The notes under the pieces were generated by a model, which worked only from the letters and a program-made list of their open reading frames with translations, was not told the origin of the DNA and did not search any database. Below, piece after piece: positions 12,928 through 41,223 of a stretch of 64,000 nucleotides of DNA. Positions within the stretch are counted from its first letter, which is position 1, and every line of letters begins with the position of its first letter. The stretch is taken from the NCBI GenBank assembly GCA_000004985.1, contig GG738914.1; one strand, written 5' to 3'. A program made the position numbers and the translations under genes. This stretch comes from Naegleria gruberi (lineage: Eukaryota).

Positions 12928-15900
12928 TTAAAACTTTGAGCTTCTACCAACCCAAATACCAATCAAGAAACAAATCAAACCCACAGCAACACTTCTACCA
13001 TCAAGAAGAGCCCTCATAAAGCCCATTCTACTGACAAATACCAAGAATGTGAATACAGTGGCAATACCGCTAAGAGTCATAATGGTGACTGCTCCAATAA
13101 CTGGAATACCACTTAATATTTTGATCAATAAAGAAAAGGCAATTACTGGCAATACTCTCATATGGGGAGTGTGAGAAAACTTGACAAATTCAACAACGAG
13201 CTTGCTAAATTCCAATTCCTTAAGCTTTGAAATTGAATTTTCAATGTGAGGCAAGTCATGAACAAAACACTTGAACAAGTATATGGCTGGGTATCCAAGA
13301 GTTGGAATTATAACGGAGAGTGCTGTAAATTTGGTAATTTGGTCTTCAACTCGTTTGTTAATGAATAATGAAATAGCAAAGGTTGCAACAGCACAGAAAA
13401 TAGAAAGGTAGAGACGAGAATAACTGATCTTAGTTGTTCTTTTTGGAGATGCTGCAATATCTGATGAATTCTTGAACTTGTCAAGCTGATTTTGGAAAGT
13501 TATAACCTCCTCATCATCACTCCAAGTATTGGTAGTCAAATATAAATAAATAGTAATACCAACAGCTTGAGAAACTTGAACATAAGCACCAAAATGACCT
13601 GATGTGGCACTAGGGAAGAACCATCTAATAATCCAATCAGTAAACATGGCTGTCATGGATGCACCAAATACCCAACGTAAGAATGCTCTCATACTCATCA
13701 TATTTGTCTTTTTGAATTGAGAAAAATCAGAAACGAGATCACTTGATACGTGACTAGCAATTTGTCCAAATACTACACCATTGAACACTAACATAAGCAT
13801 TGGATCTGTTGGATCCTTTGGATAGAGAGGGAATCCTTGGAAAATCAAATCACTCCACAATGCTAGGGCAAAGCACCAATGTTTCCAGAAAGTGGCCTTA
13901 ACCATGGTGCTAAGCATAATTGCTTTTTCTAAACCGTCCTTTGCTAATAAATCCAAAACTGGCTCCCATTCTGTACTCCAAATATCAGCTTGTTTACAAA
14001 CGTCTTCAGTTTCTCCAGACTTGACACCATAACTGATATCACAAGCTCTTAACATTTGAAGATCATTGGTACCATCACCCATGGCAAGAACATAATTTCT
14101 TCTGTGGAAGAACTTTTCATATAATGTTCTTGAGTGATAATGCTGAAGTAGTTTGACACACCACAATTTGAGACCTGGTGTAGATCTACAAAATACAATC
14201 GAGTTGACAAACTTGTTCTTCTTGTTCTTCATATTGATGAGGTCAAGCAACTTTTCAAATACAGGTCCCTTGAAATTGGATCCTTGAGAGGCATAGAGTG
14301 TTCTCATATATTCCATGCAAGATCTATCAAAAAAGAATGTAGATGGACCATTCATGGTTTCTTCATCAGCATTTTCAAGAGATTCCAATAATTCCCTTTC
14401 ATTAGATCCGCAAATATTAATATGGTTTGGCAGTGATAGATGGGTTGCAATTAGTTTAGCATTCTTATAAGAGTCTCCTGTACAGATGCAGAATTGTTTA
14501 CCGGCATGGGTCAATTGTTTGATGCCTTCTTTGACACCATCTCTATAACGATCGACCATGTAAGTAATGGAAGTCATTTTAATGTTCTTAAGAGCATCCT
14601 TAACAATTTCTAATTGTGTTTCAGTTTTCTTTTCATTATCCTTAATCATGAAACTGTCTCTCCAAGATGTCATGATTGTTTTAGCTTCTGACTCTGTAAT
14701 TTTCTTGATACCATGACTCCATGTTCTTGGAGCTCCCAATCCTAATTGGTCATCATTATCTTGAGATTGATGCATACTAGTCCACTTTTCAATTTTGTGA
14801 ATGGAAGATGGATGAGTTGTAATACCAGTTTCTCCTCTCCAAAACAATTCATCACCAGCTTGAACACTGACATAATATTCTCCAGTGTTAGCATCTTGAA
14901 CAAGACATGACTTGCACAAATATTCACGAGTGAATCCAAAGAATGAAATAATCTTTAAGTGATGTTTTTCTCTCTTTTCTGAGCATAAAGTTTCAAATTC
15001 CACAAAACCTGGTTCAATATCTTGAGAATCAATAGGCCAATGGGAAACAAGATTAGAGTATGGAGAGACCATTTTTCTGATAGCTCTTTCTTCTGGTTCT
15101 ACACCTGTAGTACTGAAAATAGCAAAGCAATTGTCCTTATGACATTTGGTAACCTCCATTTCACATTTTACATCATGTTCATAAATAATGTGATGTTCAT
15201 CAAAGTTGATTATATTATCTTCTTCATCAAGGAATAACATGGCATATTTTGGTTGCATCAAGTTGACTGTAAGAGTTCCTGTCTTGTCTGAAATGATACG
15301 ATTCACATAGGCAATTACATCAGATGCCAATGAATTGTTACACTTGACTCCACTTCTAAAGTTGAAAGATAATAAGTGACATACGGTGGTTCTTAATTGT
15401 TCCAAACCTTGAGGGACCATCATGTTAATGTACATAATTTGAGTAATCAAGACTTTTCCAAATGAATGTTCCTCATTACCTTCAACACCAAAGAATGAAC
15501 TGGCAATTGTGTTAACAATTGATAAGAAGAGCATGAGGGCTAAACTGATAAAGAATCCCTTTTGAGTATACTCTTGGAAAGGAGTTGCTTGTTTTGATGT
15601 GGTAGCTCCACTAGAGTGCAAAGCTTTTGTTTCAGTACCAGACCAAGCAACAATGCCTCTAATGGTAATCTTTTGATCTACAGAGGCAATCATGGAGTTG
15701 GCAAATACAATATAAGACTCATCCAGAATATATTTAGAGTTGACTGTAGCACTTCTTATAAGCAAGTTATCAATTTTGATTGTGTGTACAGATTCTGGAA
15801 GTAAGCATTTCTTAACTGGATCATTTTCACCAGTGACTGTAACTTCATTCATGTAGAGAATAGGCTTTCTTGAAGTTTTGAATTGAACATCAGTGTCTTC

Positions 15901-16818
15901 TACAATAATATCAGTCAAAATAAGGTCGGCAGGTAACTCTTCACCAATTCCAATTAAAACTTCATCACCACATTTTAATTGACCTCTTTGTTTCTCTCCA
16001 CCTGTTGCCATTCTTACTCTTCTCTCATTCTTTTCCTTATCAGTCTTCCACTTTGTCAATTGACTCTTAGTTTCAACAATTGCAATGAACAATGTAAAAA
16101 CTGCAAGTGGATAAAATGATTTACCAGTGTGAAAGACAAATAATTGAACAAAACTAATAATCAAGCACCAAATTTGAATTGGCTGAGAAAGGTAAACAAA
16201 GGTTGCATAAATAAAGCTGACAATGGTAATAGTTTGTGAATTTTGAATATCAAAGGTTGTTGTTGAAATGTAATTGGAATCTTCCGAAACTTGAGATGAA
16301 GATTTAGAATGAGTTTTACAACTATATCTTCTTCCACTACTTGTAGGAGAATCCAATATTTCAATTTCTCTACTTTTGTTTTGTAATTCATCCTTCTCTG
16401 TGTGATTCTTTCTCCAATCCAAAATGACCCAATAATTCAATAGGATCGGAATTAAGTGATTCATCACAATATAAGTCAAAATTGCAATAATTAAAGAAGC
16501 AAAGACAACAGGACCTCGTACAGTCTTGGTCTTTTCTGCTAACTTTCCTAAAGCTGGTTTGAAGGCTGTTTCAATGTGTCGACTCGAGTTTTTAAAAACA
16601 TTACTTTCCAATTGATTAACTGAAATCAAACTTGATATTTGGAAATCATCCAATTGAATGTAATAAAAGCAAGTGCATATGATGATAATATATACAACAA
16701 TGATTAGATAATATTGTGATTTGATGAAGGGAAAATTTGAGGAAGCATGAAATCCTCCCTTTCCAGTTGGACCCATCTGAGAGGGTGAGGAGAGTATCTC
16801 CTGATGATGAGTATGCAT
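12928..16818 (-). CDS. P4-type ATPase (phospholipid-transporting flippase)
   Basis: 1296 aa with the phosphorylation motif DKTGTLT, hinge motif GDGTNDLQML, and an N-terminal actuator region (CGDEVLIGIGEELPADLILT). The arrangement of ten predicted TM segments is typical of P4-ATPases. ATG at 16818. Confidence 0.85.
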   Translation of the reverse strand: MHTHHQEILSSPSQMGPTGKGGFHASSNFPFIKSQYYLIIVVYIIIICTCFYYIQLDDFQISSLISVNQLESNVFKNSSRHIETAFKPALGKLAEKTKTVRGPVVFASLIIAILTYIVMNHLIPILLNYWVILDWRKNHTEKDELQNKSREIEILDSPTSSGRRYSCKTHSKSSSQVSEDSNYISTTTFDIQNSQTITIVSFIYATFVYLSQPIQIWCLIISFVQLFVFHTGKSFYPLAVFTLFIAIVETKSQLTKWKTDKEKNERRVRMATGGEKQRGQLKCGDEVLIGIGEELPADLILTDIIVEDTDVQFKTSRKPILYMNEVTVTGENDPVKKCLLPESVHTIKIDNLLIRSATVNSKYILDESYIVFANSMIASVDQKITIRGIVAWSGTETKALHSSGATTSKQATPFQEYTQKGFFISLALMLFLSIVNTIASSFFGVEGNEEHSFGKVLITQIMYINMMVPQGLEQLRTTVCHLLSFNFRSGVKCNNSLASDVIAYVNRIISDKTGTLTVNLMQPKYAMLFLDEEDNIINFDEHHIIYEHDVKCEMEVTKCHKDNCFAIFSTTGVEPEERAIRKMVSPYSNLVSHWPIDSQDIEPGFVEFETLCSEKREKHHLKIISFFGFTREYLCKSCLVQDANTGEYYVSVQAGDELFWRGETGITTHPSSIHKIEKWTSMHQSQDNDDQLGLGAPRTWSHGIKKITESEAKTIMTSWRDSFMIKDNEKKTETQLEIVKDALKNIKMTSITYMVDRYRDGVKEGIKQLTHAGKQFCICTGDSYKNAKLIATHLSLPNHINICGSNERELLESLENADEETMNGPSTFFFDRSCMEYMRTLYASQGSNFKGPVFEKLLDLINMKNKKNKFVNSIVFCRSTPGLKLWCVKLLQHYHSRTLYEKFFHRRNYVLAMGDGTNDLQMLRACDISYGVKSGETEDVCKQADIWSTEWEPVLDLLAKDGLEKAIMLSTMVKATFWKHWCFALALWSDLIFQGFPLYPKDPTDPMLMLVFNGVVFGQIASHVSSDLVSDFSQFKKTNMMSMRAFLRWVFGASMTAMFTDWIIRWFFPSATSGHFGAYVQVSQAVGITIYLYLTTNTWSDDEEVITFQNQLDKFKNSSDIAASPKRTTKISYSRLYLSIFCAVATFAISLFINKRVEDQITKFTALSVIIPTLGYPAIYLFKCFVHDLPHIENSISKLKELEFSKLVVEFVKFSHTPHMRVLPVIAFSLLIKILSGIPVIGAVTIMTLSGIATVFTFLVFVSRMGFMRALLDGRSVAVGLICFLIGIWVGRSSKF

Positions 16819-25168: not shown

Positions 25169-26461
25169 TTACAAATCTGGTATGGTTTTGCAGCATTGAC
25201 CATACATGTGCTCTACTTTATCAATGCTCAATCGTCGATTAAATCTTTGTTCCTCTATTTTGAGTTTAGGGAAGCATTTACAAAGCAATAGAGCAGTTGT
25301 TTCATCCACCTTATTTCCTCCAAATCGGAAAGTTGTCAACTCGGGGAGGTTAGCTTTGGTGAGTGGCATTAATTTACAAGATTCAAGTCTGTTCTTGGAC
25401 ATATCCAAGTGCTTTAGTTTGGGTAAATTGATTGATGGCATGAATTCCAAAAATTCTAATGAGTTAAATAGTTCAATATTATTGGATAATTTCAACTTTC
25501 GCAGTTCTTTCAAATCATTCAGACCAGTAAGCTTGCTGATCATTGTGCTCGATATGTCCAACTTTCTCAATCTTACCAGATTAGAAAGATCAATAGAAGT
25601 AATACATGGGTTATCGGAAATGTTCAATTTTTCCAATTTTCTTAATTTTGTGAGAGGTATCTGGCTGATTACTGTTAGTGAAAGATTGAGTTGTCTCAAT
25701 TCTTTCAGATTCGAAATGAATGAAATGGCATCACCAACAGGAGTAAAACTCAGATCAAGTGTTGTCAAGGTAGTTAATTTTGGTAGATATTTGAAAGCCT
25801 CGTCAGTATTTACCCTTGCTTTCAATTTTCTTAGTTTCAGATCTTTCAATGCAGTTATATTACAAATATTTTGTATTCCAAGCTCACAAACACAGCTGTC
25901 CATAATTTCCACACATTTCAACTTCATGCTGCCAAATAACTGATAATCAGCAAGTGTCAATTTTACATTTCGCAAACTAATCTTTGTCAACTCTTTCAAA
26001 TTACCTAATTCTTTCAAACAATTATTATCAAACTTGATTTTAGATTCATTATCAAATTTAAATCCTCTCAAATTACTATGTATTATCAACCGTTTGATTT
26101 CATCATCATTTTCCACTTTTTTAAATTTAATTTTCGTTCCGAGATGAGAAATTAATTTCAAACCTCCCTTCTCAGCTAATTTCCTCCATCTTTCATACTT
26201 TTTCATGCAATCAAACACAATATTAATCTGAACATTACTTTCCTGTACATATCTGTACCATTTCCTCGATACCAAAGCACACTTTATCACCTCTCTATTA
26301 TGCAAATAGGTAAAAATCACTTTCGATATCACTTCCGAACCCAAAGTTTCGATCAGTGGCTCTTCCTCATCAGCATCATCACCAACACCTCCTCCCAATA
26401 ATAAGCCCTGTTCTCTCGGCTGACTCGTGCTACTACTAAAAAACGTTCGAAAGAATTGCAT
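25169..26461 (-). CDS. F-box/LRR-repeat protein
   Basis: N-terminal F-box-like segment (VISKVIFTYLHNREVIKCALVSRKWYRYV) followed by about 12 leucine-rich repeats (LxxLxLSxNxI...). ATG at 26461. Confidence 0.6.
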   Translation of the reverse strand: MQFFRTFFSSSTSQPREQGLLLGGGVGDDADEEEPLIETLGSEVISKVIFTYLHNREVIKCALVSRKWYRYVQESNVQINIVFDCMKKYERWRKLAEKGGLKLISHLGTKIKFKKVENDDEIKRLIIHSNLRGFKFDNESKIKFDNNCLKELGNLKELTKISLRNVKLTLADYQLFGSMKLKCVEIMDSCVCELGIQNICNITALKDLKLRKLKARVNTDEAFKYLPKLTTLTTLDLSFTPVGDAISFISNLKELRQLNLSLTVISQIPLTKLRKLEKLNISDNPCITSIDLSNLVRLRKLDISSTMISKLTGLNDLKELRKLKLSNNIELFNSLEFLEFMPSINLPKLKHLDMSKNRLESCKLMPLTKANLPELTTFRFGGNKVDETTALLLCKCFPKLKIEEQRFNRRLSIDKVEHMYGQCCKTIPDL

Positions 26462-26671: not shown

Positions 26672-28033
26672 TTAGGGATATTGGACTCGATTTCCTAAGG
26701 TGATGTTTTGATAGGCTTCCTTCATGCGAATGTCAAATAATTCTTTCGAGTATTGTACATAGAATCCATTGGATTTAACTGCTTCGATCTGAAGTAGCAA
26801 GTTGTTCTTTCTGTTTTGTCCGTTTAATAAATAACCCAAATTTGTTCCATCCATTCTGATATTTCTTTGAGGATCATATAGAGATGAAATATTGCTATTT
26901 GGTGGAGAACTCTGATAAAGATGTTGTTGAATTTCAGTATCTTTCTGTAGAGATAGGGGAATTAAGGAAGTAAGAAATCGATTCTTTGAAATTGCAAGCA
27001 AAGCCAATGTCTTGTCATGTTTCAATTCTGTGGAGCAGAATTCGTATGCTTCTGGATTCTTTTGAATAGCTATCATGACCAGCTCTCTATCATTTTTCAA
27101 TTCATTGGAGGCATATTTGAGAGCTGCACCATTTTGATTCACTGCTTGGAGCACTATTTCTCTATCATTCCTTAGTGAATCGTCCAAATATTGAAGAGCT
27201 GCTCCGTAGCGAGTGACACTTTTCATGACAATGTTTCTGTCTTTTTTGAGAGTTGTTGATGCATATTGGATGCAAGAACCTTGGCTTTTGATTGCTTCCA
27301 TTACTAATTCAAAGTCATTTTGTAAATTGGAATTTACATATTTAAGAATCTCAGGATGAGTATTGACAGCTGTTATCACAATTTCCCTATCATTTCGAAA
27401 TGAAAATGTGTATTCCAATGCTCTTCCGTTTCGTTTCACAGCCTCAAATACCAATTCTCTATCATTCTGTAATGATTTATCAGCAAACTTGATAGATAAT
27501 GGCTCGTTTTTCACTGCCTCCATCATTAATTCCCTGTCCTTTCTTAATTGTTGCGAAACATGCGAAAGAATTTCTGAATCTCCATTTCTTACACATTCCA
27601 ATAGTACATTCCTACAATTTATCCATTTCACTAACTCCTTTTTTACTGATCCAATCTTAATAATATCACTAAATTGGTATCTTTTAGCTAATTTTACAAC
27701 CATTTCCTCAGTCAATCGATCTTGCAATTTTTTCCCTTGTTTACAAAAGCTTACAAAAAATTCAACGAAAATGTCTTCATCTTGTTGTAGGCTCGGAGGA
27801 ATCTGTTCAAATATCGAAATGGCCTTTGGAAAATCCCTTCCACAATTTTCTCTTCTAATAAACTTGAGTAGAAAATTCTTATCATGAGAAAATTCTATCG
27901 GAATGTATTGATAATTGTCTTCTCTGCGCTCCAGCCATAATTTTCTAAATTTCCTATCAATAGAATAGTGGTTTTTCAGGAGAGAACTTGGTGCCGAGTC
28001 GGAGAGCATAATTATAACATGTTGTTGATTCAT
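26672..28033 (-). CDS. DUF4116-repeat protein
   Basis: At least eight tandem ~30-aa repeats of the form NDRE(I/L)V(L/M)xAVxxNGxALxYAS..L+ (for example DREIVLQAVNQNGAALKYASNELKNDRELVMIAIQKN), characteristic of DUF4116. ATG at 28033. Confidence 0.55.
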   Translation of the reverse strand: MNQQHVIIMLSDSAPSSLLKNHYSIDRKFRKLWLERREDNYQYIPIEFSHDKNFLLKFIRRENCGRDFPKAISIFEQIPPSLQQDEDIFVEFFVSFCKQGKKLQDRLTEEMVVKLAKRYQFSDIIKIGSVKKELVKWINCRNVLLECVRNGDSEILSHVSQQLRKDRELMMEAVKNEPLSIKFADKSLQNDRELVFEAVKRNGRALEYTFSFRNDREIVITAVNTHPEILKYVNSNLQNDFELVMEAIKSQGSCIQYASTTLKKDRNIVMKSVTRYGAALQYLDDSLRNDREIVLQAVNQNGAALKYASNELKNDRELVMIAIQKNPEAYEFCSTELKHDKTLALLAISKNRFLTSLIPLSLQKDTEIQQHLYQSSPPNSNISSLYDPQRNIRMDGTNLGYLLNGQNRKNNLLLQIEAVKSNGFYVQYSKELFDIRMKEAYQNITLGNRVQYP

Positions 28034-28331
28034 TTTTTTTGATCTATTACAATGAAATGAAGTTATTGTAAACTTTCACAACCTTCTTTACATGTCTTTC
28101 TTGAAGTACTTGATTTTGAATTTATCTCATATCAAGAATCATTGATTTTCTTCTTTTGGTTTTGAATTCGTCCAGTTTGAGTTAATCAAGGTCAATAAAA
28201 GCTTGTTTACAGGTCTTCAACATTATTTCTTATACAATGAAAATATTCGAAAGTACAATTAAGATTTATTCAAAAAGATAATTCCAGATGTCAAAATCTT
28301 CAACACGTCAATTACAAAACCCAAACAATTC

Positions 28332-29231
28332 ATGACTCAAAAAAAAATGACCAAACGTGTATTAATTTTTGGTCAATCAGGTGTAGGTAAATCCTCCATG
28401 ATCAATGCTCTCGCCAATAGCAAACTCCCAGTTTTGGATGGAGCAGTTGGAACCACCTTTGAAAGCGAAGAAGTTTCGTTTAAAGATTCGTCCAATCAAG
28501 AAATACTTCTCATCGATACAGTAGGTCTCAGCGAATCAGCAACTGGCACCTCCTCTTCAATCGATTCTTTCATCAAACTCAAAAATCTATTGAAAAAATC
28601 AACTTGCGGTTTCAATTTAATGATCTTTGTAACAACCAAAGATCGAATCACAGGTAATGATAAAGCCAATATCGAACTATTCAAGACTATTCTTGGTGAT
28701 GACAAAGTGCCAGTAATCATGGTGGTTAATAAGAGTGAAAATCTTGAAGATTGTGAGAATATGGTATTAGATTTGGAGAGTAATCAGTGGGTTACTAAAA
28801 ATCTTTTGTATATTGAACAAGTTTATGGAAAGGATTGTTTTGCTTGTATTAAATCGACTTCTTTCCCATGTACGAAAGGAGACGATTTGACATTCTCTGA
28901 AGAGGAAAAGAAGTTGGTTAGTGAAGCTTCGAGAAGGATTGTTCTCGCAATGATTAACAAGTACTCTTCCAAGGAAAGTGTAGTACTTATCAGATCTAGT
29001 CAAGATTTATTTTCGAAACTCGTTCGAATGTGGAATTTGTTTCTTTTTAAAACTGGAGAGACAGCTTTCAAGATTGGAATTGATTTACAATCATTCTCAA
29101 GTGTTGGAAAGTTGGCAGAGAAACTAAAGGTGATCTTTAAGGCAGATATTAATTTTCTTGAACTGGCTATGGATCTTTATGGAATTGGTGTCAATAACAA
29201 TGAACATGATGTTGCTTGTAATAAAAAATAA
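28332..29231 (+). CDS. P-loop GTPase, AIG1/GIMAP-like (TRAFAC class), paralog A
   Basis: G1 FGQSGVGKSS; switch-I Thr in VGTTF; G3 DTVGL; G4 variant VVNKSE; a C-terminal ~150-aa helical extension. ATG at 28332. Confidence 0.55.
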   Translation: MTQKKMTKRVLIFGQSGVGKSSMINALANSKLPVLDGAVGTTFESEEVSFKDSSNQEILLIDTVGLSESATGTSSSIDSFIKLKNLLKKSTCGFNLMIFVTTKDRITGNDKANIELFKTILGDDKVPVIMVVNKSENLEDCENMVLDLESNQWVTKNLLYIEQVYGKDCFACIKSTSFPCTKGDDLTFSEEEKKLVSEASRRIVLAMINKYSSKESVVLIRSSQDLFSKLVRMWNLFLFKTGETAFKIGIDLQSFSSVGKLAEKLKVIFKADINFLELAMDLYGIGVNNNEHDVACNKK

Positions 29232-29283
29232 ATCTATCAAAGTAATGGACGAAACTGAAAAGTAATACTTTCGAATAAATTTA

Positions 29284-30177
29284 TTAGAATCCCAAAATAT
29301 CCTTAGCAACTTCTTGTGCCTTCTCCTTACTAACACCAAAGTTAATCATTAGCGCTTGAGTAACATTTTCCAACTTTTCTTCAAGCTCATCACGAACATT
29401 GAAAACATCCTTATGACCAAATATTCCAGCAATAGCATTTCCAATACTTGCAAAGGTCTTTTTCGTATTAATATAGAACCAATTCAATACTCTTGTGAGG
29501 ACTGTCATGAAATTTTCCTTCGTTACAATAAAAATACTTTCATCAGAAGCATGTTGGTCAATCAGATCAAACAATAGTTTTCTTGAGGTGTTGCATAATA
29601 AATTGATACTTTCATTGTTGCTAGTAAAGGAAGGTTGTGGGAAGGCAACTGTTTGTTTTGCACAGAAGGTTTGCTCACCGAAAGCACTTGCCAATTGAGA
29701 TTCGTTTTGTTTAATCCAAGTATTATTGGTTAAATCATCGAGAGATTTCAAACCGTTATCTGTGTCAGCTTTGGAAACAACCATAAGTGTTGGAACTTTG
29801 TTTTGGCCAAGGATTTGAGAGAATAATTGAACATTCTTTACATCACTACTTGTGATTCGTCCCTTTTCGAATACATAGATGAATAGGTTGAAACCTGTCA
29901 AGGAATCTTTCAAAAAGTCTTTCAACTTTACAAAGGCGGTAAAGTTATCAACTGTGCCAGATTCACATTCATTCAAACCTACTGTATCATCAAAACGATA
30001 GATTTTACCATTGATCTCTGTTCCCTGTTTGTTGATTGGTGGAATAATTGTCATTTGAAAAGTGACACCAACAGCACTGTCGTCAGTATTAAAGTTTTCA
30101 CCAGTCAAATTGTTTAAAATTGTGGTTTTGCCTGATCCTGAACATCCATAGATTAACACACGTCTTTCTGTTTTCAT
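29284..30177 (-). CDS. P-loop GTPase, AIG1/GIMAP-like, paralog B
   Basis: G1 YGCSGSGKTT; VGVTF; G3 DDTVGL; G4 variant VVSKAD. Colinear with paralog A over its whole length. ATG at 30177. Confidence 0.55.
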   Translation of the reverse strand: MKTERRVLIYGCSGSGKTTILNNLTGENFNTDDSAVGVTFQMTIIPPINKQGTEINGKIYRFDDTVGLNECESGTVDNFTAFVKLKDFLKDSLTGFNLFIYVFEKGRITSSDVKNVQLFSQILGQNKVPTLMVVSKADTDNGLKSLDDLTNNTWIKQNESQLASAFGEQTFCAKQTVAFPQPSFTSNNESINLLCNTSRKLLFDLIDQHASDESIFIVTKENFMTVLTRVLNWFYINTKKTFASIGNAIAGIFGHKDVFNVRDELEEKLENVTQALMINFGVSKEKAQEVAKDILGF

Positions 30178-30346
30178 TTTTTGTTTTTTATAATTCTTAT
30201 TCGAATCCTTCTAATTGTTTGCAATGTCCATTTTCCAGTGTTGTGAGAATTACAAAAACCTAATTTGAAAATTAAATACTTTTTTGAACCCTAGTCTGCC
30301 CATTTTCTGAACCAAATGAATACTTTCCAATAAATCAAAAAGAAAA

Positions 30347-31492
30347 ATGAAACCACCAAGTTTCGAATCACAAGTCATAAATTCTTCCAACTCTAAAACA
30401 CAACAAATAACTGCCTTCAACAGTGTTACCTACAATACCGACAATACCATTGCTATCAAATATCTAAACCAATCGAATGGTGACGTTTCCAAAGCCATTG
30501 AAAATTATTTTGATGAACAGGAACAACAGTCAACTGATTCAGATCGATCAAGTATTTCAAATCCTTCCAGTGATGTAATTCGCATTTTGGTTGTTGGTAT
30601 TACAGGTTCTGGTAAATCATCCCTTGTCAATGGAGTTACTGGAAGTACATTAGCAACAAGTGACAATGCCAATGGATGTACCTGTGGATATAAACGACAG
30701 GAATGTGAATACGAAAGTCAAAAATTCGAATTAATCGATACAGCTGGATTTGGTGAAGTTTCTGAAGTTGGAACTGTAAAACCAGATGTTGCTTTCAAAT
30801 CTATTCAAAAATTGGTCAGATATTCATACTCTGGTTACAATTTGATCGTATTTGTGACAACAAAGAAAAAAATTACTCAAACTGATGTTGATCATGTCAA
30901 GCTAATCACAGAGATACTTTGTAAAAACTCCATTCCAACAGTATTACTTGTTAACAAGTCTGAATCTGGTGCTAACAAAATTGATGACATCTGTCAAAAT
31001 AAGTGGCTCAATGATAATAATGGAGCAAATCTGAATGAATTCTACAAAGCTTTTGGAAAGGACACCTTTCGAGCCATTCAACAAATTGCTTTTCCAAAAG
31101 GTGAAAAATCAATCCTTCAACAAATTAGAGAAGCATCCAAAAGGATATTCTTCGAGAAGGTTATTCCCTATGCTTCCCCAACAAGAATTGTCATGAAACA
31201 CACAGTATCTCAATTTCTATCGGATTGTTACAGAACTGAGACAAGTGGTGTAGATGGTACCTCAAAGCATAATTTCATTGTTGGAACCATACTATTGCCC
31301 TTCCTTCCACTCATGTTATGGGCGGAGAGTTTTGAAAAAACCATGAAAAAGAGGGAAATTAAAGAGTTGGAAGAAGAGCACAGTAATTTTTTGGTTTCAA
31401 CCTTATCAATCAGTAAGAAACAGGCAGTACAAATTGCCAAAGAGAGCGTCACCTATGAATTTTCTGAATTGGGATCAGGTTCATGGGAATAA
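30347..31492 (+). CDS. P-loop GTPase, AIG1/GIMAP-like, paralog C, with an N-terminal UBA-like domain and a C-terminal hydrophobic segment
   Basis: N-terminal TIAIKYLNQSNGDVSKAIENYF is UBA/CUE-like. G1 VGITGSGKSS; G3 DTAGFG; G4 LVNKSE. C-terminal FIVGTILLPFLPLMLWAESF is a possible membrane anchor. ATG at 30347. Confidence 0.5.
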   Translation: MKPPSFESQVINSSNSKTQQITAFNSVTYNTDNTIAIKYLNQSNGDVSKAIENYFDEQEQQSTDSDRSSISNPSSDVIRILVVGITGSGKSSLVNGVTGSTLATSDNANGCTCGYKRQECEYESQKFELIDTAGFGEVSEVGTVKPDVAFKSIQKLVRYSYSGYNLIVFVTTKKKITQTDVDHVKLITEILCKNSIPTVLLVNKSESGANKIDDICQNKWLNDNNGANLNEFYKAFGKDTFRAIQQIAFPKGEKSILQQIREASKRIFFEKVIPYASPTRIVMKHTVSQFLSDCYRTETSGVDGTSKHNFIVGTILLPFLPLMLWAESFEKTMKKREIKELEEEHSNFLVSTLSISKKQAVQIAKESVTYEFSELGSGSWE

Positions 31493-31719: not shown

Positions 31720-32751
31720 ATGTTGTTAGCATCTGTCCTTCTTTCAATCTTTGCAATCTGCTTCACTATTGTGTTGATCATTCTCTGTAAAACTGAATTT
31801 GATTCTGATGAAATTTATGTTTTTCCTTCGGTAAGCATTGACGGAAAGGAAGAAGACAACACGTCATCAATTTTTGAACCATTGCCAACATGCAGTAGTG
31901 CTCCTCTATCATCAACTCATGAAGAAGTGGACGAAAGTGTTCCATTGATCATTGACTTGGGATTATTTGATTGTTATTATGGGAGACCAAAGAATAGTGA
32001 CGGAGTGTCAAGTCCTATGTACATGTTGTCTACTGTTGGGTTCAGATCTGATTTTTCAACTCTAGACTTTGGAAATTGTCAAGAATATTCCAAGTGTGGT
32101 TTCGAATACAAATTTTTGATGGCCAACGTAGAGAATGTTGAAAGATATTTCATTGATTTTGTTACCAATATTATCAACAAGTCAGATCTTGGCAATAAGA
32201 AGATTAGATTGTTGATTGTTGGACCAGAATTAGATTATGATAACGAAATTAGAAAGAAAATGACTCAATTACTATTCGAATGTTCGAATGTTACTCATCT
32301 CTGTATCACTAAACCTTCCGAAATGGCAGCTTTCGCGTTAGAGAAGAAAAATGCAATTATCATTCACTCTGATGGCATCTCAACTAATATTGTTCCTGTT
32401 ATTGAAGGCGAATCTTCTGATTACTTATTGAGATTTGAAAATTCATTGGTTGACTATAAGAATTTAACAAAATTCTACATGAAGAATCAAACAAAACTTG
32501 GAGAAACAGTGAATGCTTCCTCTACTGGAATTTCAAAGCTTGTAATTGAACTCCTTTCTGATCTTGGAGATGATTACAATTTCACAGATACAATAGTTTC
32601 AGGTCGCTCACTTTCGTTTAAAAGAATGAAAGAATGGAAATCAATTCCAAACATATCTAAGAGTGAATACAAACCAGAAGAATTAGTTTGGATGGGTGCA
32701 TGTAAATTCGCAACTTATAGCTCAAACCAAAGATGGGTTTCACTTCAATAA
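31720..32751 (+). CDS. Highly divergent minimal actin-fold (Arp-like) protein with an N-terminal hydrophobic anchor
   Basis: PLIIDLGLFDCYYG recalls the actin phosphate-1 motif [45 protein letters not shown]...IIIHSDGISTNIVPVIEGES aligns to the actin [55 protein letters not shown], and C-terminal ...TIVSGRSL...VWMGACKFA to VLSGGTTM...[10 protein letters not shown]. Subdomain 4 is shortened. N-terminal MLLASVLLSIFAICFTIVLIILC is TM-like. Confidence 0.45.
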   Translation: MLLASVLLSIFAICFTIVLIILCKTEFDSDEIYVFPSVSIDGKEEDNTSSIFEPLPTCSSAPLSSTHEEVDESVPLIIDLGLFDCYYGRPKNSDGVSSPMYMLSTVGFRSDFSTLDFGNCQEYSKCGFEYKFLMANVENVERYFIDFVTNIINKSDLGNKKIRLLIVGPELDYDNEIRKKMTQLLFECSNVTHLCITKPSEMAAFALEKKNAIIIHSDGISTNIVPVIEGESSDYLLRFENSLVDYKNLTKFYMKNQTKLGETVNASSTGISKLVIELLSDLGDDYNFTDTIVSGRSLSFKRMKEWKSIPNISKSEYKPEELVWMGACKFATYSSNQRWVSLQ

Positions 32752-33261: not shown

Positions 33262-36200
33262 ATGATGTTGTTGATTAAGGTAAACATGACTTTTAATGGA
33301 CCCTCCTCACCTATCAATTCGCCTTAAAGAATCCCTTCTATTTTGTAACTTGCATTTGATTCCATGTGTATGCATATGGATACATTGAAACGACCAAAAA
33401 AAACCCCTCAACTTGGCTGTGCACACAAACAGAGTTGCACCACACGCTTAACCTTAAAGAATTCATCGAAAAACAGTTCATTGTATAGGGTACGAAATGA
33501 ATAACTATCACTCTCTTGTTAAATTAGCTGATAGCCGTCATTTACTTGATGGTTGGAAGGTCTTTTATTGTTAAAGGAACTACCACTTGTTTTGGAGAAG
33601 ACAGTACCAGCTCTACCTCTTGTGGTGCTTTTGGAAAATGTGTAGGGAATGATACTTGCTCATGTGACCCCAACGTAGCAATAGGTTAGTAGTGCTTGTC
33701 AAACTTTTGCTTATGGTAATCACTTTTATTAAGGAACCAAATGCGAAACACAATTGTGTGGAGGTAAATTACCAACAGATCCGAAAGTTTGTGGAGGAAG
33801 GGGTGTATGTTATAATGGAGATTGTGCGTGCACTTTGGATGAAAGATTTGGTTCAACCCAACACGTTGGACTCACTTGTGAAATACCAGTTTGTTTCCCA
33901 CTCCTTGTAGATCCGTACAGACGTGAATACGAATGTGGAGGACATGGCACATGTGTAGAAACCAATATCTGTGATTGCCATGTTGGATATGGTGGTTATG
34001 ATTGTACCAAGACTGGTTTCAAATGTAGTGGAATCAATGCAACAAATTCCAAGGTGTGTTCTGGGCGTGGACAATGCATCGATCAAGATTATTGTCTTTG
34101 TCAATCGGATGATTATGGTGGAGTTGACTGTTCGACACCCAAGTGCAATGGTTTTCTAGCAACAGAAGAGGGAGTGTGCAATGGACGAGGTCAATGTCTG
34201 CAACCAAATAATTGTACTTGTACTTCTGGATTTAGTGGAACAAATTGTGAACTTGATGCCAGTAATCAACAAGTTGAGAGAATAGTGACTTGTTATGGAG
34301 TGCTTTCAAATGATTCTGTGAATGTATGCTCTGGTAAAGGATCTTGTTTTGGAAATGATTATTGCAGCTGTCAGATAGGTTATACAGGTGCTCGGTGTAA
34401 TGAAACATTTTGCTTTGGAGTTTTACAAACAAGTGACAAGACATGCTCTGGAAATGGTGTTTGTTCATCATTGAATACTTGTTCATGCAATAATAATTCA
34501 CCCTTTTTGAGATATGTGGGTGAGGAGTGTGGAATTCTTCAATGTCGAGGAGTTGACTTGGAATTTTACAACTCCACCGATGTGAGAGTATGTTCAGGGA
34601 GAGGAGCATGCATAGATCATTTAGGATGTGTTTGTAATGAGGGTTATTATGGAGAATCTTGCCAAATCTCTTCATGTTTTTCAGTTTTATCAAATAGTTC
34701 ACAAGTTTGTAATGGTCATGGAATTTGTCAAGATTTGGACAATTGTGAATGTTATTCAAATTCTACAAATGGATACTGGTATGGAGATGATTGTTCGGTG
34801 TGTGCTAATTCCTATGAAGGAAATCTCTGTAATCTAAAGAAATCTTGCAACTCTTCCACTACTTGTATGAGCTTGGGTGAGTGTTCAAACAATGATTTAT
34901 GTCGTTGTGAAAGCTCTTTTGATGGAGAGAATTGTGAAGAATGTGCTCTTGGTTATTATGGCCCTTTGTGTGAAATATTTTGCTCTGCAGAATTGAATTG
35001 TTCTTCGAATGGAGTGTGCTCAAGAGATGGATTTTGTGATTGCTATCAATCGAGAGAATTGGGTTATTTCCAATCAGAAAACTGTTCCAAATGCTCGCCA
35101 GGATACTTTGGTAATGACTGCTCAACGTTTGTTGGATCAAATTTCACTTTTAACAATTATGGAAATGAGCTAATTTTGAGAATAATTCCTCCTCTCAATA
35201 TTGACAAGATTCAAACTGAAAATGAATGCAAAACTTTCTTCCCCCCTAGATCTAGATTAAAACTGGGTGGAGAATTCACTTGTCATTGGATAGACGTTTA
35301 CAACGGATATCTTTCAGTGCTGATTCCTCAAAACGCAACAATTATACCAGGAGATTTCTTAGAGTTTAATGTTTATTCATTTGAACAATATGCAAAACCA
35401 GCTCAGTATCGAAATATCACGTCATTTGCAAGTGATGTGAACAAGATTATCACGCAACATGCTGACATTGAAACTGCAACAAGTTTCCAGAAAGGAACAA
35501 CCTTAACCATCAGGGGAAAGAGTTTGATAAGTATTGAAAGAGAAAGAGAATTGTATTATGAGTGGAGTATTGTAAATTCTAACCCTACTATGAATTCACT
35601 AAATAGTCATGTCAGCTCTCAGTCAGGATGGGGTAAATCAGTCATTTCCATTCCAAGTTCTTTCACATCAAGTGTGAACCTTATCAATCTCAAACTAAGA
35701 ATTGCAAATTATTATCAACAATTTGGATCTGAAAAGCAAGTTATCTTACAAGATTTGTCAACTGCCAGCTCATCAGTCAATCAAGTACAAATCAAAATTA
35801 CAACAGCAAGAAATAGATTATACATACTCAATGATATACTTCCTTACAAAATCAATTGCAAATTGACCGTAAACGGTGTGCAAGTCACCAACATTATATC
35901 GAGCGGATACTCAATTGAATGGAGTCTAAGTCCTGATCTTGGAATAGGTTTAGCAAATCTCACCCTTATTACATTGAAACCATATACAAGTGACAATAGC
36001 ACTGTTTTGTTTACATCTGAAGATACTCTGTATTATGATTTCTACAATGTACCTTATACAGTCTTTAATGTGTCAGCTGTTGTTAAGAAAAATGGAACTG
36101 TCGTCTCTAGTGACAGTTTACAAATTCATTTCAATTTATTTGAGCAAAAGCAGTATGGTATTACACTGTCTCGAACACCTACTGATATGACCATTGATGC

Positions 36201-37308
36201 TCAATATCCAGCTGTCATATCATTATCCATTCCACCAGAAGTAACAATTTTATCAGTTGAGTGGGCATGTTTTGCCTATCACATGTATAAGGGAAAGTGT
36301 CACGATCAATATCAAGCAATTATTGCTCAAAGTGGAAACAAGACAAGAATTGAACTTCCAAAGAGTGCCATTTTCCTTCATTATAACACTGTAAAATTCT
36401 CTGTAAAAATTACAACCACTTCAGGAGTTGAGTATCGAGATACAAGTTTTTCACCAAGTGCCTCCTATCAAATTCCATATGCAGTCACAGAGACTGCCTT
36501 CTTCAGTTCTGGCTATAGAGGACCATTTAGATTGTATTCTCTTCATGGAACTAAATTCTCTTTCGAATATCGTTTATTTGATAGCACAGAACCATCCATA
36601 GCATCAGCAGGTGATGCTCCAGCCACAACTGGAACAGTTACAGCATATAACGTTTACAGTAACAATCAAATTACATTAAGTGCCGCCAATGGAATAACTA
36701 CCTACACAGACACTTACTACAGTGGTCCAAATTTGGCTAAATTAGTTAAAGTTGACATGACAAAATTTTCATCTCCAATTTATTTCCAAGTGAAATTTAC
36801 TTACAAAACTTTGGAGATGAATGTTAGACAATATTTAATTATTGGAACAGTTCCAAGAGAAAGGGTGGATATTAATGTGAAAGTTGTTCCATTCGTTCAA
36901 AATCCAGAGTTCAGCAATTACATTTTTCAAGTTTCGAATGATGTAGCAAATTCATTCTATGAAGTAACTGTTTCTCTTTCTCTGAGATATAAGAATGACA
37001 CTAGCATGTCCTACTCATTTGGTTCTCTGTCCATGTTTAGTTTAAATAGAGAGGTAAAAATTGCCTTTCCACCTCTCTTGGATTCGTTTACAATCTATAA
37101 GAAAGTAACCTATTATACGGATTCCTGGGTTGGGTACGAACATGAAGAATCACTTTATATCTACGAAGAAGAAGTTGCCTCATTCCCTGCCTCTCCACAC
37201 AGTTCTGATCCATTCATTAAGGCGATGCAATCAAAAATTAAGATTGCATTCGAAAAGGGATCGAATTATCTTTCTTCAGCTTCATCCATTATGAATTCAT
37301 ACTATTAA
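33262..37308 (+). CDS. Large secreted EGF-repeat glycoprotein (about 16 laminin/tenascin-type EGF modules plus a Cys-poor C-terminal domain of ~800 aa); 3 exons, first exon inferred
   Basis: Exon 3 (33734..37308) and exon 2 (33528..33684) are joined by a 49-nt GTTAGT..AAG intron (33685..33733) in phase 1: ...NVAIG|TKCETQLCGG.... A candidate exon 1 at 33262..33279 (ATGATGTTGTTGATTAAG + GTAAAC donor) with an AG acceptor at 33527 would give the signal-peptide-like N-terminus MMLLIKLIAVIYLMVGRSF. EGF modules such as CSGRGQCIDQDYCLCQSDDYGGVDCSTPKC repeat. Many NxS/T sequons. Confidence 0.6.
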
Positions 37309-38759: not shown

Positions 38760-41223
38760 TATTTTACGGTTTTATGTTACTCTTTAGGATGGAAGGAAAT
38801 ATTGAGATACCTTCCAATAAATTTTCTTGATTACTTAATTTTTTGTTAAGAAAAAATACCCGCCAAATATTCCTTCCAGTTTTGCACAGAATTCCAACTT
38901 TTATTGGAAAATTAAAAAAGATTAAAATAAATTTGAAAAATGTTTATTTTTTATTAAAAAAATTTAAACGTTTATTAATCGAATGAACCCGACGGGTTCG
39001 TCCATTTGGAACGTCTTATTGAATTTTTAAGATTTTGTTGTATTGTTTTTGTACTCTTCCTCCAAAAAGTGAGAGGCCTCCTTGTATCTTGGGCCATTGT
39101 TCTTTGATAATACCTTGAATAGGTTCTGTCAGAATACCAAAGATATTCAGTTGGAATGAGTTTGGTGTTAATGTTTCTGTCCTCTCTGTGCTTAGTACTG
39201 GTTCGAGATTGGTATTTTTTTTGATTTCTTCAATCATCCAGTTTCTAGCTGAATTCATTTCTGGGCATTCTATGAAGAGGTGTTCTGTGTCAAGGTTTTT
39301 GTTACATGTTGGGCATTGTGGGTTGTCTACTATGAGGCTTCTTAAGTGTCCATTTATCATGAGCCTCCAGATTGAGTATTTGTGAGTTGGGGTGGTATGT
39401 TCTTTGAGGTACTTGAGATTTGTTCTGTTGATGAGTTCGGATGTTCCTTGATCGTAGAGCTTTTCACTAAGTACTCCTTTGATTCTACTTTTCCAAACTT
39501 TTTTCGAATTGGTGATAATTAATTGCCCTTGAGTTAGTAGATGTTGGGGTGTAATTCGATGTCCTATTCTTGAGGCTTGTTTGGCTTTCTTATCAGCGTA
39601 GTTATTTCCATCTGTTATTCCTGTATGAGCTTTTGTCCATTCGATGGATGCTTGAAGTTTTTTAGTGCTGATGAGGTTGGTAATTTCATCTTTGATTTGC
39701 TTAAATTGACCTTTGTAATTTGTGTTGTTAATTATTTTGACTGCTATTTCACTGTCAGTGAGTACCTTTGCATTGCTGTTTGGTGGTATGATGTGTAGTG
39801 CTGTTGTAATTGCTGATAATTCAGCCATGTTGTTTGAGTGGTATGAGTGGAGCTTGTATTTGTATCCTTTTGTAAATTCGTTGTTCTGAATGATTACACT
39901 GAATCCTACTTTGTTTTCTGATTTGGATCCATCAGTCCATATTGTGAATTCTGAGTAGGAGTATTGTTCATCTTTTTCCTTTTCCAGAAGTTGATGATTG
40001 GTGTTACATTTTGTTGTGGTAAGTTTGTGTTGTTTTAGGATGTAGTGGAATTTCTCAAATATGTTGTGTAGTTTTGTTTTGTTCGTGTTACAGTTATTAA
40101 TTCCGTACTGTACTGCTTCTCTGACAAGTGGGTTACTTGAGTGGAATTTGTTGATTAAGTTATTGCAAAGGATTGAGTTGGCTATGTATTCGAGGTTTGG
40201 AATTTCTAGTCCTTTTCTTTCGAATTGTGCATACATTATGGATGGTTTTACCTTTGCATCGATCTTCAGTGATCTTTTTAGGTTACCCCTTATTGTTGAG
40301 TCAATTGTTTGTAGGCGAGGATTGGAAATTGAATTTCCTCCTGCTAGATGGATAAAACTACTAATTGTCTTGCCCATTATGATTCTTTTGAGATTTTCTG
40401 GTTCTATCAAATGGATTGGAAGTATTTTTAGTATTTGTGTTACTCTAGCTTCTCTTTTGTCAATTTCTTTTGTGAAGAGATGGTCTTCTGTGATGTAGTT
40501 TCCTAATGTTCTTTGATTGGTTTGTCTTGGTATTAACGTATCGTCAAGCTTAACTGTGAAGTCTTTAAGGGCTATTCTTTCCGGTGTGACAGAAGTTATT
40601 GATTTAGAAGCATTGATTTTCATTTTGAGATTCCCTATCCATTTGTTCAGTTGTTTGAGTTTGGTATTGTGTTTCTTGTTGGGTTGTGTTACTAATGAGC
40701 AGTCATCAGCAAAATTAAGAGTTCCTATTTCTTCAATTTTGAATGATGGTGTGACAGGTATTTTCCAATTCTCGATTTGGTAATCTATTATAATTTGGGT
40801 GATTGTGTTATACATTAGTGGTGCTAGTGGACATCCTTGTGGAACACCTCTTGTTTTGGTGAGAGGGTTAATTAATATGTCATTCCATTCTATATATGCT
40901 TTGTGATTGCTGTATGCATTGATTATGAATGTAGTGAGATTTGGTGGGAATTTACAATGTTTCATAGCTAATCTAAGGACACAATGTTCTACACCGTCAT
41001 ATGCATTTTCTATGTCCAAGTTGGTGATTACAAATGCATTTGTTTTCTTGTATTTGACTCTTAATGCTTGGATTACTAGAATATGGTTGTTAACTTCTCT
41101 GTTGGATGTGAATGCTTGTTGTCTAATATTGATGTTATCTTTTGCCCATTTACCTATTTTCCTTGCTATGATGTTAAATAATAGTCTATATAGTGTACTA
41201 TTTTTTATTAAAAAAATGATCAA
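38760..41223 (-). mobile_element. 5'-truncated non-LTR (LINE) retrotransposon: RT, RNase H and a CCHC zinc knuckle, with a structured 3' UTR
   Basis: Minus-strand ORF 39016..41223 has RT motifs 0-C (…AFTSNRE…, DIENAYDGVEH, RGVPQGCPLAPLMYN, FADD), an RNase H block (TDGSKSENKVGFSVII...DSEIAV...KAHTG...NNYADKKAK), and a C-terminal Cys/His knuckle (CPTCNKNLDTEHLFIECPEM). There is no endonuclease or ORF1 part, and the RT fingers start at the ORF edge. The 3' UTR contains a perfect hairpin GAACCCG-A-CGGGTTC (38985..38999). The 3' boundary is not precisely defined. Confidence 0.75.

Follow-up and report, generated by a model that had tools for sequence, protein, structure and literature searches.

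Introduction

To which family do three adjacent GTPase genes of the amoeboflagellate Naegleria gruberi belong, and could their products work together? The genes, here called paralogs A, B and C, lie between positions 28,332 and 31,492 of a stretch of 64,000 nucleotides (the window) from contig GG738914.1 of assembly GCA_000004985.1. The source is nuclear DNA of N. gruberi NEG-M, and the contig measures 233 kb. An initial annotation, made from the window's letters, had described the genes as a cluster of AIG1/GIMAP-like paralogs. In vertebrates, GIMAP/AIG1 GTPases matter for the survival of lymphocytes, in plants for defence and in Entamoeba for virulence, yet what they do at the molecular level is still unclear. 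How they are distributed among protists has been called largely unexplored (PMC8857920).

A, B and C are divergent GIMAP/AIG1-like GTPases of the septin type and not core members of that family. In the preferred reading, which is given a probability of roughly 0.6, they are diverged paralogs of the GIMAP/AIG1-like ('paraseptin') kind that would dimerise with one another, with C as the localised partner. The observations behind it are the paralogy of the three proteins, their nucleotide-binding motifs and fold, and a UBA-like domain and a hydrophobic segment in C.

GTPase motifs and family assignment

A, B and C are true paralogs, as the initial annotation had proposed. Pairwise BLASTP gave 33% identity between A and B (E 4e-45), 31% between A and C (E 1e-33) and 31% between B and C (E 3e-33). 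For the pairs A/B and A/C, the alignment runs across the G domain and reaches far into the C-terminal extension; for B and C it stops at residue 217 of B. All three genes are uninterrupted open reading frames (ORFs), found on +/-/+ strands at exactly the coordinates first given. By our own calculation, at a GC content of about 33%, stops make up about 7% of random codons, so the chance of an open frame of 300 codons is about 1e-10.

The nucleotide-binding motifs can be read directly from the sequence and are those first listed. G1 is GQSGVGKS, GCSGSGKT and GITGSGKS in A, B and C, respectively, G3 is DTVG, DTVG and DTAG, and G4 is NKSE, SKAD and NKSE. The G1 pattern GxxxxGK[ST], the G2 threonine and the G3 pattern DxxG are thus kept in all three. 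The variant G4, which had been reported as a departure from NKxD, fits human GIMAP7 (TRKE) and GIMAP2 (THKE), where G4 also ends in glutamate. In the wider subfamily described below, the G4 consensus is T[GHK]CE, with the glutamate present in 47 of 57 sequences. This TxCE form equals the variant TxC(D/E) reported for coral AIG1 proteins (PMC7053062).

GIMAPs carry a conserved box between G3 and G4, for which the mouse consensus is LSxPGPHALLLVxQLGR[F/Y]TxE[D/E] (PMC7053062, PMC3100574). In an explicit alignment of A, B and C with human GIMAP7, human GIMAP2 and a fish GIMAP8-like protein, the Naegleria pattern S..G(F/Y)NL.(I/V)(F/Y)V....(R/K)IT..D matches S..GPHA..LV.QLGRYT of GIMAP7 and GIMAP2 column for column. 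The basic residue of the box is R105 in A, R107 in B, where the arginine is retained within KGRIT, and K175 in C. R105 of A aligns with the conserved-box arginine of human GIMAP7 and GIMAP2 (QLGRYT). In the numbering of PDB entry 3zjc, the substitution L100Q lies three residues before this arginine, which is therefore R103 of GIMAP7.

Among the sequence models, the generic Pfam model MMR_HSR1 was the top match (49.8, 25.8 and 50.1 bits for A, B and C), followed by Pfam AIG1 (PF04548; 36.4, 24.2 and 45.8 bits). The AIG1 gathering cutoff of 27 bits is passed by A and C. In an alignment of 57 sequences, made up of A, B, C and 54 family members, 47 match AIG1 at E<=0.001. The predicted fold points to the family more clearly than these models do. 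The AlphaFold2 model of C has a predicted local distance difference test score (pLDDT) of 79.7 overall and above 90 across most of the G domain, and its first 17 Foldseek matches are all chains of GIMAP7, GIMAP2, GIMAP5, GIMAP1 or Toc34. The closest solved fold is thus a GIMAP, and the similarity includes the helices that come after the G domain. The closest fold matches of B are GIMAP7 and GIMAP4. The chloroplast import GTPases Toc33 and Toc34 are less similar to the Naegleria proteins than GIMAPs are, and Naegleria has no plastid.

After the G domain, a predicted helical C-terminal extension of about 110-130 amino acids (aa) was measured, shorter than the roughly 150 aa first estimated. AlphaFold2 models it as four to five helices, in part at low confidence. 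A helical extension likewise follows the G domain in human GIMAP7 and GIMAP2 (PDB 3zjc and 2xtm), which also resemble the Naegleria proteins in G1-G3, in the Glu-ending G4 and, for A and B, in the arginine of the box. Identity to these human proteins is only 16-20%.

Other GTPase families were compared as well. A septin assignment is rejected on the Pfam cutoff and the fold ranking: the cutoff of Septin (PF00735; 26.2 bits) is missed by A (13.7 bits) and C (17.3 bits), and B has no listed match. An assignment to the ribosome-assembly GTPases Era, EngA or YihA is likewise rejected on cutoffs and fold ranking. The initial annotation had named best matches to unrelated families, for example EngB/YihA, together with a missing UBA match, as evidence that would speak against its proposal. 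This was not the outcome: a UBA match exists, and the NCBIfam models Der, Era, YihA, HydF and others gave 14-55 bits against cutoffs of 116-950. The equivalog cutoffs were all missed widely (Der, 14-55 bits against 306.7; Era, 14-39 against 116-237; YihA, 25-29 against 124). EngA/Der chains do rank first in sequence searches of the PDB, but only through the summed scores of their two G domains; when domains are scored singly, GIMAP7 gives the highest and longest match (46.8 bits, profile positions 7-218). Era, EngA(Der) and YihA belong to the same TrmE-Era-EngA-YihA-septin-like superfamily and reach comparable profile scores over G1-G3, but they rank lower structurally and lack the AIG1-type box.

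Several observations weigh against the assignment. MMR_HSR1 scores slightly above AIG1 in all three proteins, B fails the AIG1 cutoff, and the AIG1 match spans only model positions 2 to about 133-140 of 212, or the first two thirds of the domain in Naegleria. With hhalign, AIG1 (109 over 191 columns) is hardly separable from the EngA G domains (104-105 over 131-156 columns). The G5/IAN signature RxxxFNN of human GIMAP7 and GIMAP2 is not kept in A, B and C, where the phenylalanine alone remains (SFP, AFP and AFP, respectively); its counterpart in the subfamily is CF[G/A]. The C-terminal helices contain conserved motifs, RxWN and S..EA..IA.E, other than those of the human proteins. The fold and the diagnostic conserved box make the proteins GIMAP/AIG1-like, and the partial coverage by the hidden Markov model (HMM), the lost IAN motif and the score of B make them divergent rather than core members. 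The family first proposed was therefore correct in kind, and full membership in it was not borne out.

Domain architecture of paralog C

The N-terminus of paralog C matches the Pfam domain UBA_4 (PF14555) with 35.3 bits (E 9.8e-9), well above the cutoff of 21.8, which agrees with the UBA-like module noticed initially. AlphaFold2 places helices at residues 16-28, 33-42 and 47-67, with a pLDDT of 74-87 over residues 21-50. The region also aligns with the UBA domain of yeast Dcn1 (2l4e), as a weak match (E 0.1). The adaptor UBXD8/FAF2, of the UBX family, combines a UBA-like domain with a hydrophobic membrane hairpin. In Dcn1 and UBXD8, the UBA-like domain is followed by a PONY or UBX domain, whereas in C it is followed by a GTPase. 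The UBA-like domain is absent from the roughly 190 family members sampled, and we know of no human GIMAP that contains one.

A hydrophobic segment of 17-21 residues is present in the helical extension of C and absent from A and B. Its Kyte-Doolittle mean over 19 residues is 1.68, and the Hessa sum is +1.1 kcal/mol for residues 310-326; the best segment of A or B reaches +7 or more. AlphaFold2 models a helix over it (residues 309-332) at a pLDDT of about 60. The initial annotation had regarded this segment as a C-terminal membrane anchor. The hydrophobic stretch itself was found, but it is short, contains two prolines and is modelled at low confidence. In addition, buried beta-strands of the subfamily also reach a Kyte-Doolittle mean of at least 1.6, so this scale alone is no useful transmembrane test here. 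Another 52 residues follow, including a terminal helix; the segment is therefore not a terminal tail anchor and, at best, a marginal membrane anchor. In tail-anchored GIMAPs such as GIMAP1, GIMAP2 and GIMAP5, the hydrophobic segment lies at the extreme C-terminus, whereas that of C is internal. It is a candidate for a membrane-inserting helix or hairpin. The combination of a UBA-like domain, a GIMAP-like G domain and a hydrophobic segment was found only in C among the proteins sampled.

Distribution of the subfamily

An exhaustive HMMER search with a profile of the three paralogs identified 716 proteins at E<=1e-10. The best matches are single-domain proteins of 250-300 aa, whose alignment spans the G domain and a large part of the extension, and two-domain forms of 450-680 aa are also present; one true 6xAIG1 protein occurs within the top 150 matches. 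Two motifs recur in the extension across the family, R(V/M)WN.F in one helix and S..EA..IA.E in the terminal one, and some members contain hydrophobic C-terminal segments. Members are found in bacteria (Spirosoma, Polaromonas, Accumulibacter, Dolichospermum, Saprospiraceae, Rhodoferax, Rubrivivax, Pseudaquabacterium and Corallococcus), cyanobacteria, Burkholderiales and Bacteroidota among them, and in eukaryotes, namely the fungus Jaapia, the rotifers Rotaria and Adineta, and a eukaryote-like metagenomic contig of 263 kb. This divergent GIMAP-like subfamily is thus patchily distributed, and no description of it was found in the literature searchable here. Literature searches for Naegleria together with AIG1, and for the accession numbers of the genes, gave nothing relevant.

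In some members, a MACPF, ADP-ribosyltransferase, LIM or DnaJ domain is joined to the GTPase. Examples are a metagenome protein of 795 aa that joins the subfamily G domain to a MACPF/perforin domain, and a protein of 434 aa from Adineta steineri with an NAD:arginine ADP-ribosyltransferase domain. The MACPF and ADP-ribosyltransferase fusions hint at toxin- or immunity-related uses of the family. Bacterial copies are mostly solitary, and no conserved neighbour gene was found around the bacterial homologs. The only other multi-copy array seen is in GCA_002796835.1 (LUGL01000192.1, 1771-5436), where four tandem paralogs of 273, 279, 241 and 284 aa lie on the same strand next to an IS630-type transposase.

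This distribution allows for a different explanation, namely that A, B and C belong to a separate, undescribed GTPase family of mainly bacterial origin, transferred horizontally to Naegleria, fungi and rotifers, and act as stand-alone, conflict- or toxin-associated NTPases that only resemble GIMAPs and form no heterodimers of paralogs. Members in Dolichospermum, Saprospiraceae, Rhodoferax, Rubrivivax, Polaromonas, Spirosoma and Corallococcus agree with it, as do those in Jaapia, Rotaria, Adineta and the eukaryote-like contig, the two toxin-type fusions, the missing IAN motif, the family-specific extension 'RxWN ... S..EA..IA.E' and the earlier observation of GIMAP-like effectors in bacteria (PMC3417536). 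Homology searches of the word-indexed kind, queried either with C by itself or with the profile of the three paralogs, also returned no ortholog from other Naegleria species, only N. gruberi proteins and distant Der-like GTPases. On the other hand, matches to the PADLOC defence-system models are weak and generic (16-22 bits at best, to mad8 or LeoBC, in the P-loop region only), tblastn found no match in phage and plasmid collections, and there is no conserved operon partner. The box, the type of G4 and the best fold match are all GIMAP-like, so that the mechanism is likely to be shared whatever family label is used. The explanation as a whole is considered rather unlikely.

Relationship and evolution of the three paralogs

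The initial annotation had suggested local duplication with inversion. The three genes are adjacent, and when each paralog was compared by BLASTP with about 200 family members, another Naegleria paralog came out on top, though narrowly (142 against 126, 142 against 120 and 114 against 102 bits). "FP" after beta-6 and a lysine in G4 are common to all three, and an insertion after G4 is common to A and B. A first neighbor-joining tree placed A, B and C together with long-branch outgroups, without resolution, and in a neighbor-joining tree of 65 taxa an A+B+C clade was recovered in 2 of 100 bootstrap replicates. Only adjacency and narrow reciprocal best hits stand in favor of the suggestion, and the tree does not; local duplication followed by long divergence appears to be the simplest reading, not a proven one. 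The window holds no further paralog.

The cluster had also been put forward as the closest thing in the window to an undescribed module. AIG/GIMAP genes normally occur in tandem arrays, in which neighbors may be parallel, convergent or divergent (PMC7053062), so the mixed-strand arrangement represents no new module. In addition, the bacterial relatives have no conserved partner gene, and the genes were already annotated. The cluster is fairly ordinary for a known kind of gene, though unstudied. In humans too, GIMAP genes are clustered and include soluble members and members with a hydrophobic segment. Coral and mollusc AIG1/GiMAP expansions likewise show tandem mixed-strand arrays, genes gained and lost by lineage, fusions to other domains and, at times, dual G domains, but their proteins score strongly and over the full length on PF04548, while the Naegleria proteins are borderline and have NKSE or SKAD as G4 (PMC3723955, PMC7053062).

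The environmental contig ERZ929261 in ENA (1574 bp) is 98.2% identical to positions 27868-29448 of the window. Gene A differs in it by 7 nonsynonymous and 4 synonymous changes and by an in-frame 9-bp deletion that removes W-N-L of the family-conserved RxWN helix, so constraint may be weak. These very few events suggest fast or relaxed evolution of gene A. They would fit an explanation in which the duplicates are decaying or have become functionally relaxed and do not act in a coordinated way, and in which C has its UBA fusion and its hydrophobic stretch only incidentally; the paralogs are also as distant from each other as from bacterial members, and the failure of the word-indexed searches to return an ortholog from another Naegleria species points the same way. 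However, 11 substitutions are too few for measuring selection, the deletion keeps the frame, and the UBA-like domain lies well above its cutoff. The three frames are intact, with every nucleotide-binding motif kept despite about 31% identity, and decay is considered quite unlikely.

It is very improbable that A, B and C are ribosome-assembly GTPases of the Era/EngA(Der)/YihA type: the top match to MMR_HSR1, the Der scores of A (46.8 bits) and C (54.9 bits), the lead of EngA/Der in the PDB searches and the close hhalign scores speak for it, but these scores are far under every equivalog cutoff, the EngA lead is a sum over two domains and its matches are largely limited to G1-G3, no KH or other RNA-binding domain is among the Pfam matches of the three proteins, and a patchy, multi-copy and fast-evolving distribution differs from that of universal housekeeping GTPases.

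Proposed mechanism

Under the preferred reading, that of diverged GIMAP/AIG1-like paralogs, the three proteins most likely bind GTP through the intact P-loop, the G2 threonine, DTxG and the [N/S]K-x-[E/D] form of G4. By analogy with GIMAPs, they would most likely form nucleotide-dependent homo- or heterodimers across a G interface that includes the conserved box, and the helical extension may control oligomerization or membrane contact. C would be the localised partner, held on a membrane by its proline-containing hydrophobic segment, with the UBA-like domain binding ubiquitin or a ubiquitin-like protein. A and B would be soluble regulators that keep the arginine of the box. As C has lysine at this position, A and/or B may regulate the GTP turnover of C, in a trans-activation modelled on GIMAP7 acting on membrane-bound GIMAP2.

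Two points count against this last step. R103 of GIMAP7, which aligns with R105 of A, would be the trans-acting catalytic arginine that Schwefel et al. reportedly described in 2013, an identification supported here only indirectly, by the residue numbering of 3zjc. GIMAP2 shares the arginine of the box, yet is inactive alone.

Characterized GIMAPs dimerize via the G interface, including the conserved box, and form heterodimers too; GIMAP7 activates membrane-bound GIMAP2, and labor is divided between membrane-bound and soluble members (PMC9111091, PMC8201404). GIMAP6 binds the ubiquitin-like protein GABARAPL2 (PMC9111091). The biological role of the Naegleria proteins can only be guessed at; stress, defence or scaffolding at organelle surfaces in a bacterivorous amoeba may be considered.

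A more far-reaching version, regarded as unlikely, makes the three genes a self-contained switch of the GIMAP type. Embedded in a membrane and without the trans-acting arginine, C would serve as a scaffold GTPase that reads ubiquitin. The soluble paralogs A and B, which have the arginine, would bring about its assembly or turn it off, so that ubiquitin marks on membranes would be tied to GTP-driven scaffolds. The GIMAP2/GIMAP7 and GIMAP6-GABARAPL2 pairs would then have an ancient counterpart in this switch, which may have been acquired via bacterial gene transfer.

Organization of the locus

The coordinates of the genes and their elements are listed in Table 1. A and B are convergent, with 52 bp between their stop codons, and the spacer between the divergently transcribed B and C may be a shared promoter region, judging from the coordinates. 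The NCBI model of A begins at the second ATG (28347) and encodes 294 aa. C is 100% identical to XP_002670513.1 (D2VZD0), annotated as "GTP-binding protein".

Table 1. Positions of the three GTPase genes and their sequence elements in the window.
Feature	Position	Strand	Residues	Description and basis
Paralog A	28332..29231	+	299 aa	GIMAP-like G domain and helical C-terminal extension, no hydrophobic segment
A, G1/P-loop	28371..28394	+	14-21	GQSGVGKS; sequence reading
A, conserved box	28599..28652	+	90-107	STCGFNLMIFVTTKDRIT; AIG1-type; alignment with human GIMAP7 and GIMAP2 and fish GIMAP8-like protein
A, G4	28728..28739	+	133-136	NKSE; gapless register with TRKE of GIMAP7 and THKE of GIMAP2
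Paralog B	29284..30177	-	297 aa	Most divergent G domain, helical extension; XP_002670569.1 / D2VZC9, "predicted protein"
B, terminal helix	end of helical extension, within 29284..30177	-		SKEKAQEVAKDILGF; found family-wide
B/C spacer	30178..30346	.	169 bp	Between divergently transcribed B and C
Paralog C	30347..31492	+	381 aa	UBA-like domain, GIMAP-like G domain, helical extension with hydrophobic segment
C, UBA-like domain	30401..30520	+	19-58	Dcn1 UBA type; Pfam PF14555 UBA_4
C, conserved box	30824..30877	+	160-177	SYSGYNLIVFVTTKKKIT; Lys175 in place of Arg
C, hydrophobic segment (candidate membrane-inserting)	31271..31333	+	309-329	NFIVGTILLPFLPLMLWAESF; two prolines; hydropathy, Hessa scale, AlphaFold2 helix
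C, terminal amphipathic helix	31412..31462	+		SKKQAVQIAKESVTYEF; common to B, bacterial and rotifer members; alignment

The two flanking genes are of the kinds first reported. Directly upstream of A lies D2VZC7 (26672-28033, -), with six DUF4116 repeats (258 bits). On the other side, D2VZD1 (31720-32751, +; 343 aa) has a strongly hydrophobic N-terminus (MLLASVLLSIFAICFTIVLIILC). Its similarity to actin is only partial and borderline, at 28 bits for a cutoff of 27, with residues 159-230 aligned to model positions 92-162 of 410. The protein may represent part of an actin/ASKHA fold tethered to a membrane. Farther upstream of A, a protein with an F-box and leucine-rich repeats (25169-26461, -) is a possible substrate adaptor for ubiquitin ligation. 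Together with the UBA-like domain of C, this amounts to two ubiquitin-system-type domains within 6 kb, quite possibly by coincidence.

Elsewhere in the window, a retroelement is marked by an ORF (39016-41223, -) that encodes reverse transcriptase and RNase H domains, and its region (38-44 kb) coincides with a marked excursion of GC skew and AT skew. Two very large proteins with teneurin-type EGF arrays are encoded at 33754-37308 (+) and 56561-63973 (-), and the one of 2470 aa additionally contains a REJ domain (62 bits). An ORF of 633 aa (289-2190, -) has a strong Actin match of 182.6 bits over two stretches, and one of 1296 aa (12928-16818, -) matches E1-E2 (P-type) ATPase and HAD-hydrolase.

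Implications

Naegleria carries a divergent GIMAP-like subfamily that is common to scattered bacteria, fungi and rotifers, and one of its members is fused to a domain of the ubiquitin-binding type. What is new is this divergent, patchy subfamily and the architecture of C; the gene annotations and the type of cluster were already known. The value of the finding is comparative and modest, with no new principle. The three genes provide a small, intron-free and tractable set for studying trans-activation between paralogs and a link to ubiquitin. If the switch described above were true, the membranes concerned could be, for example, phagosomes containing bacteria or damaged organelles, and a free-living amoeboflagellate would possess a counterpart of vertebrate immunity circuits.

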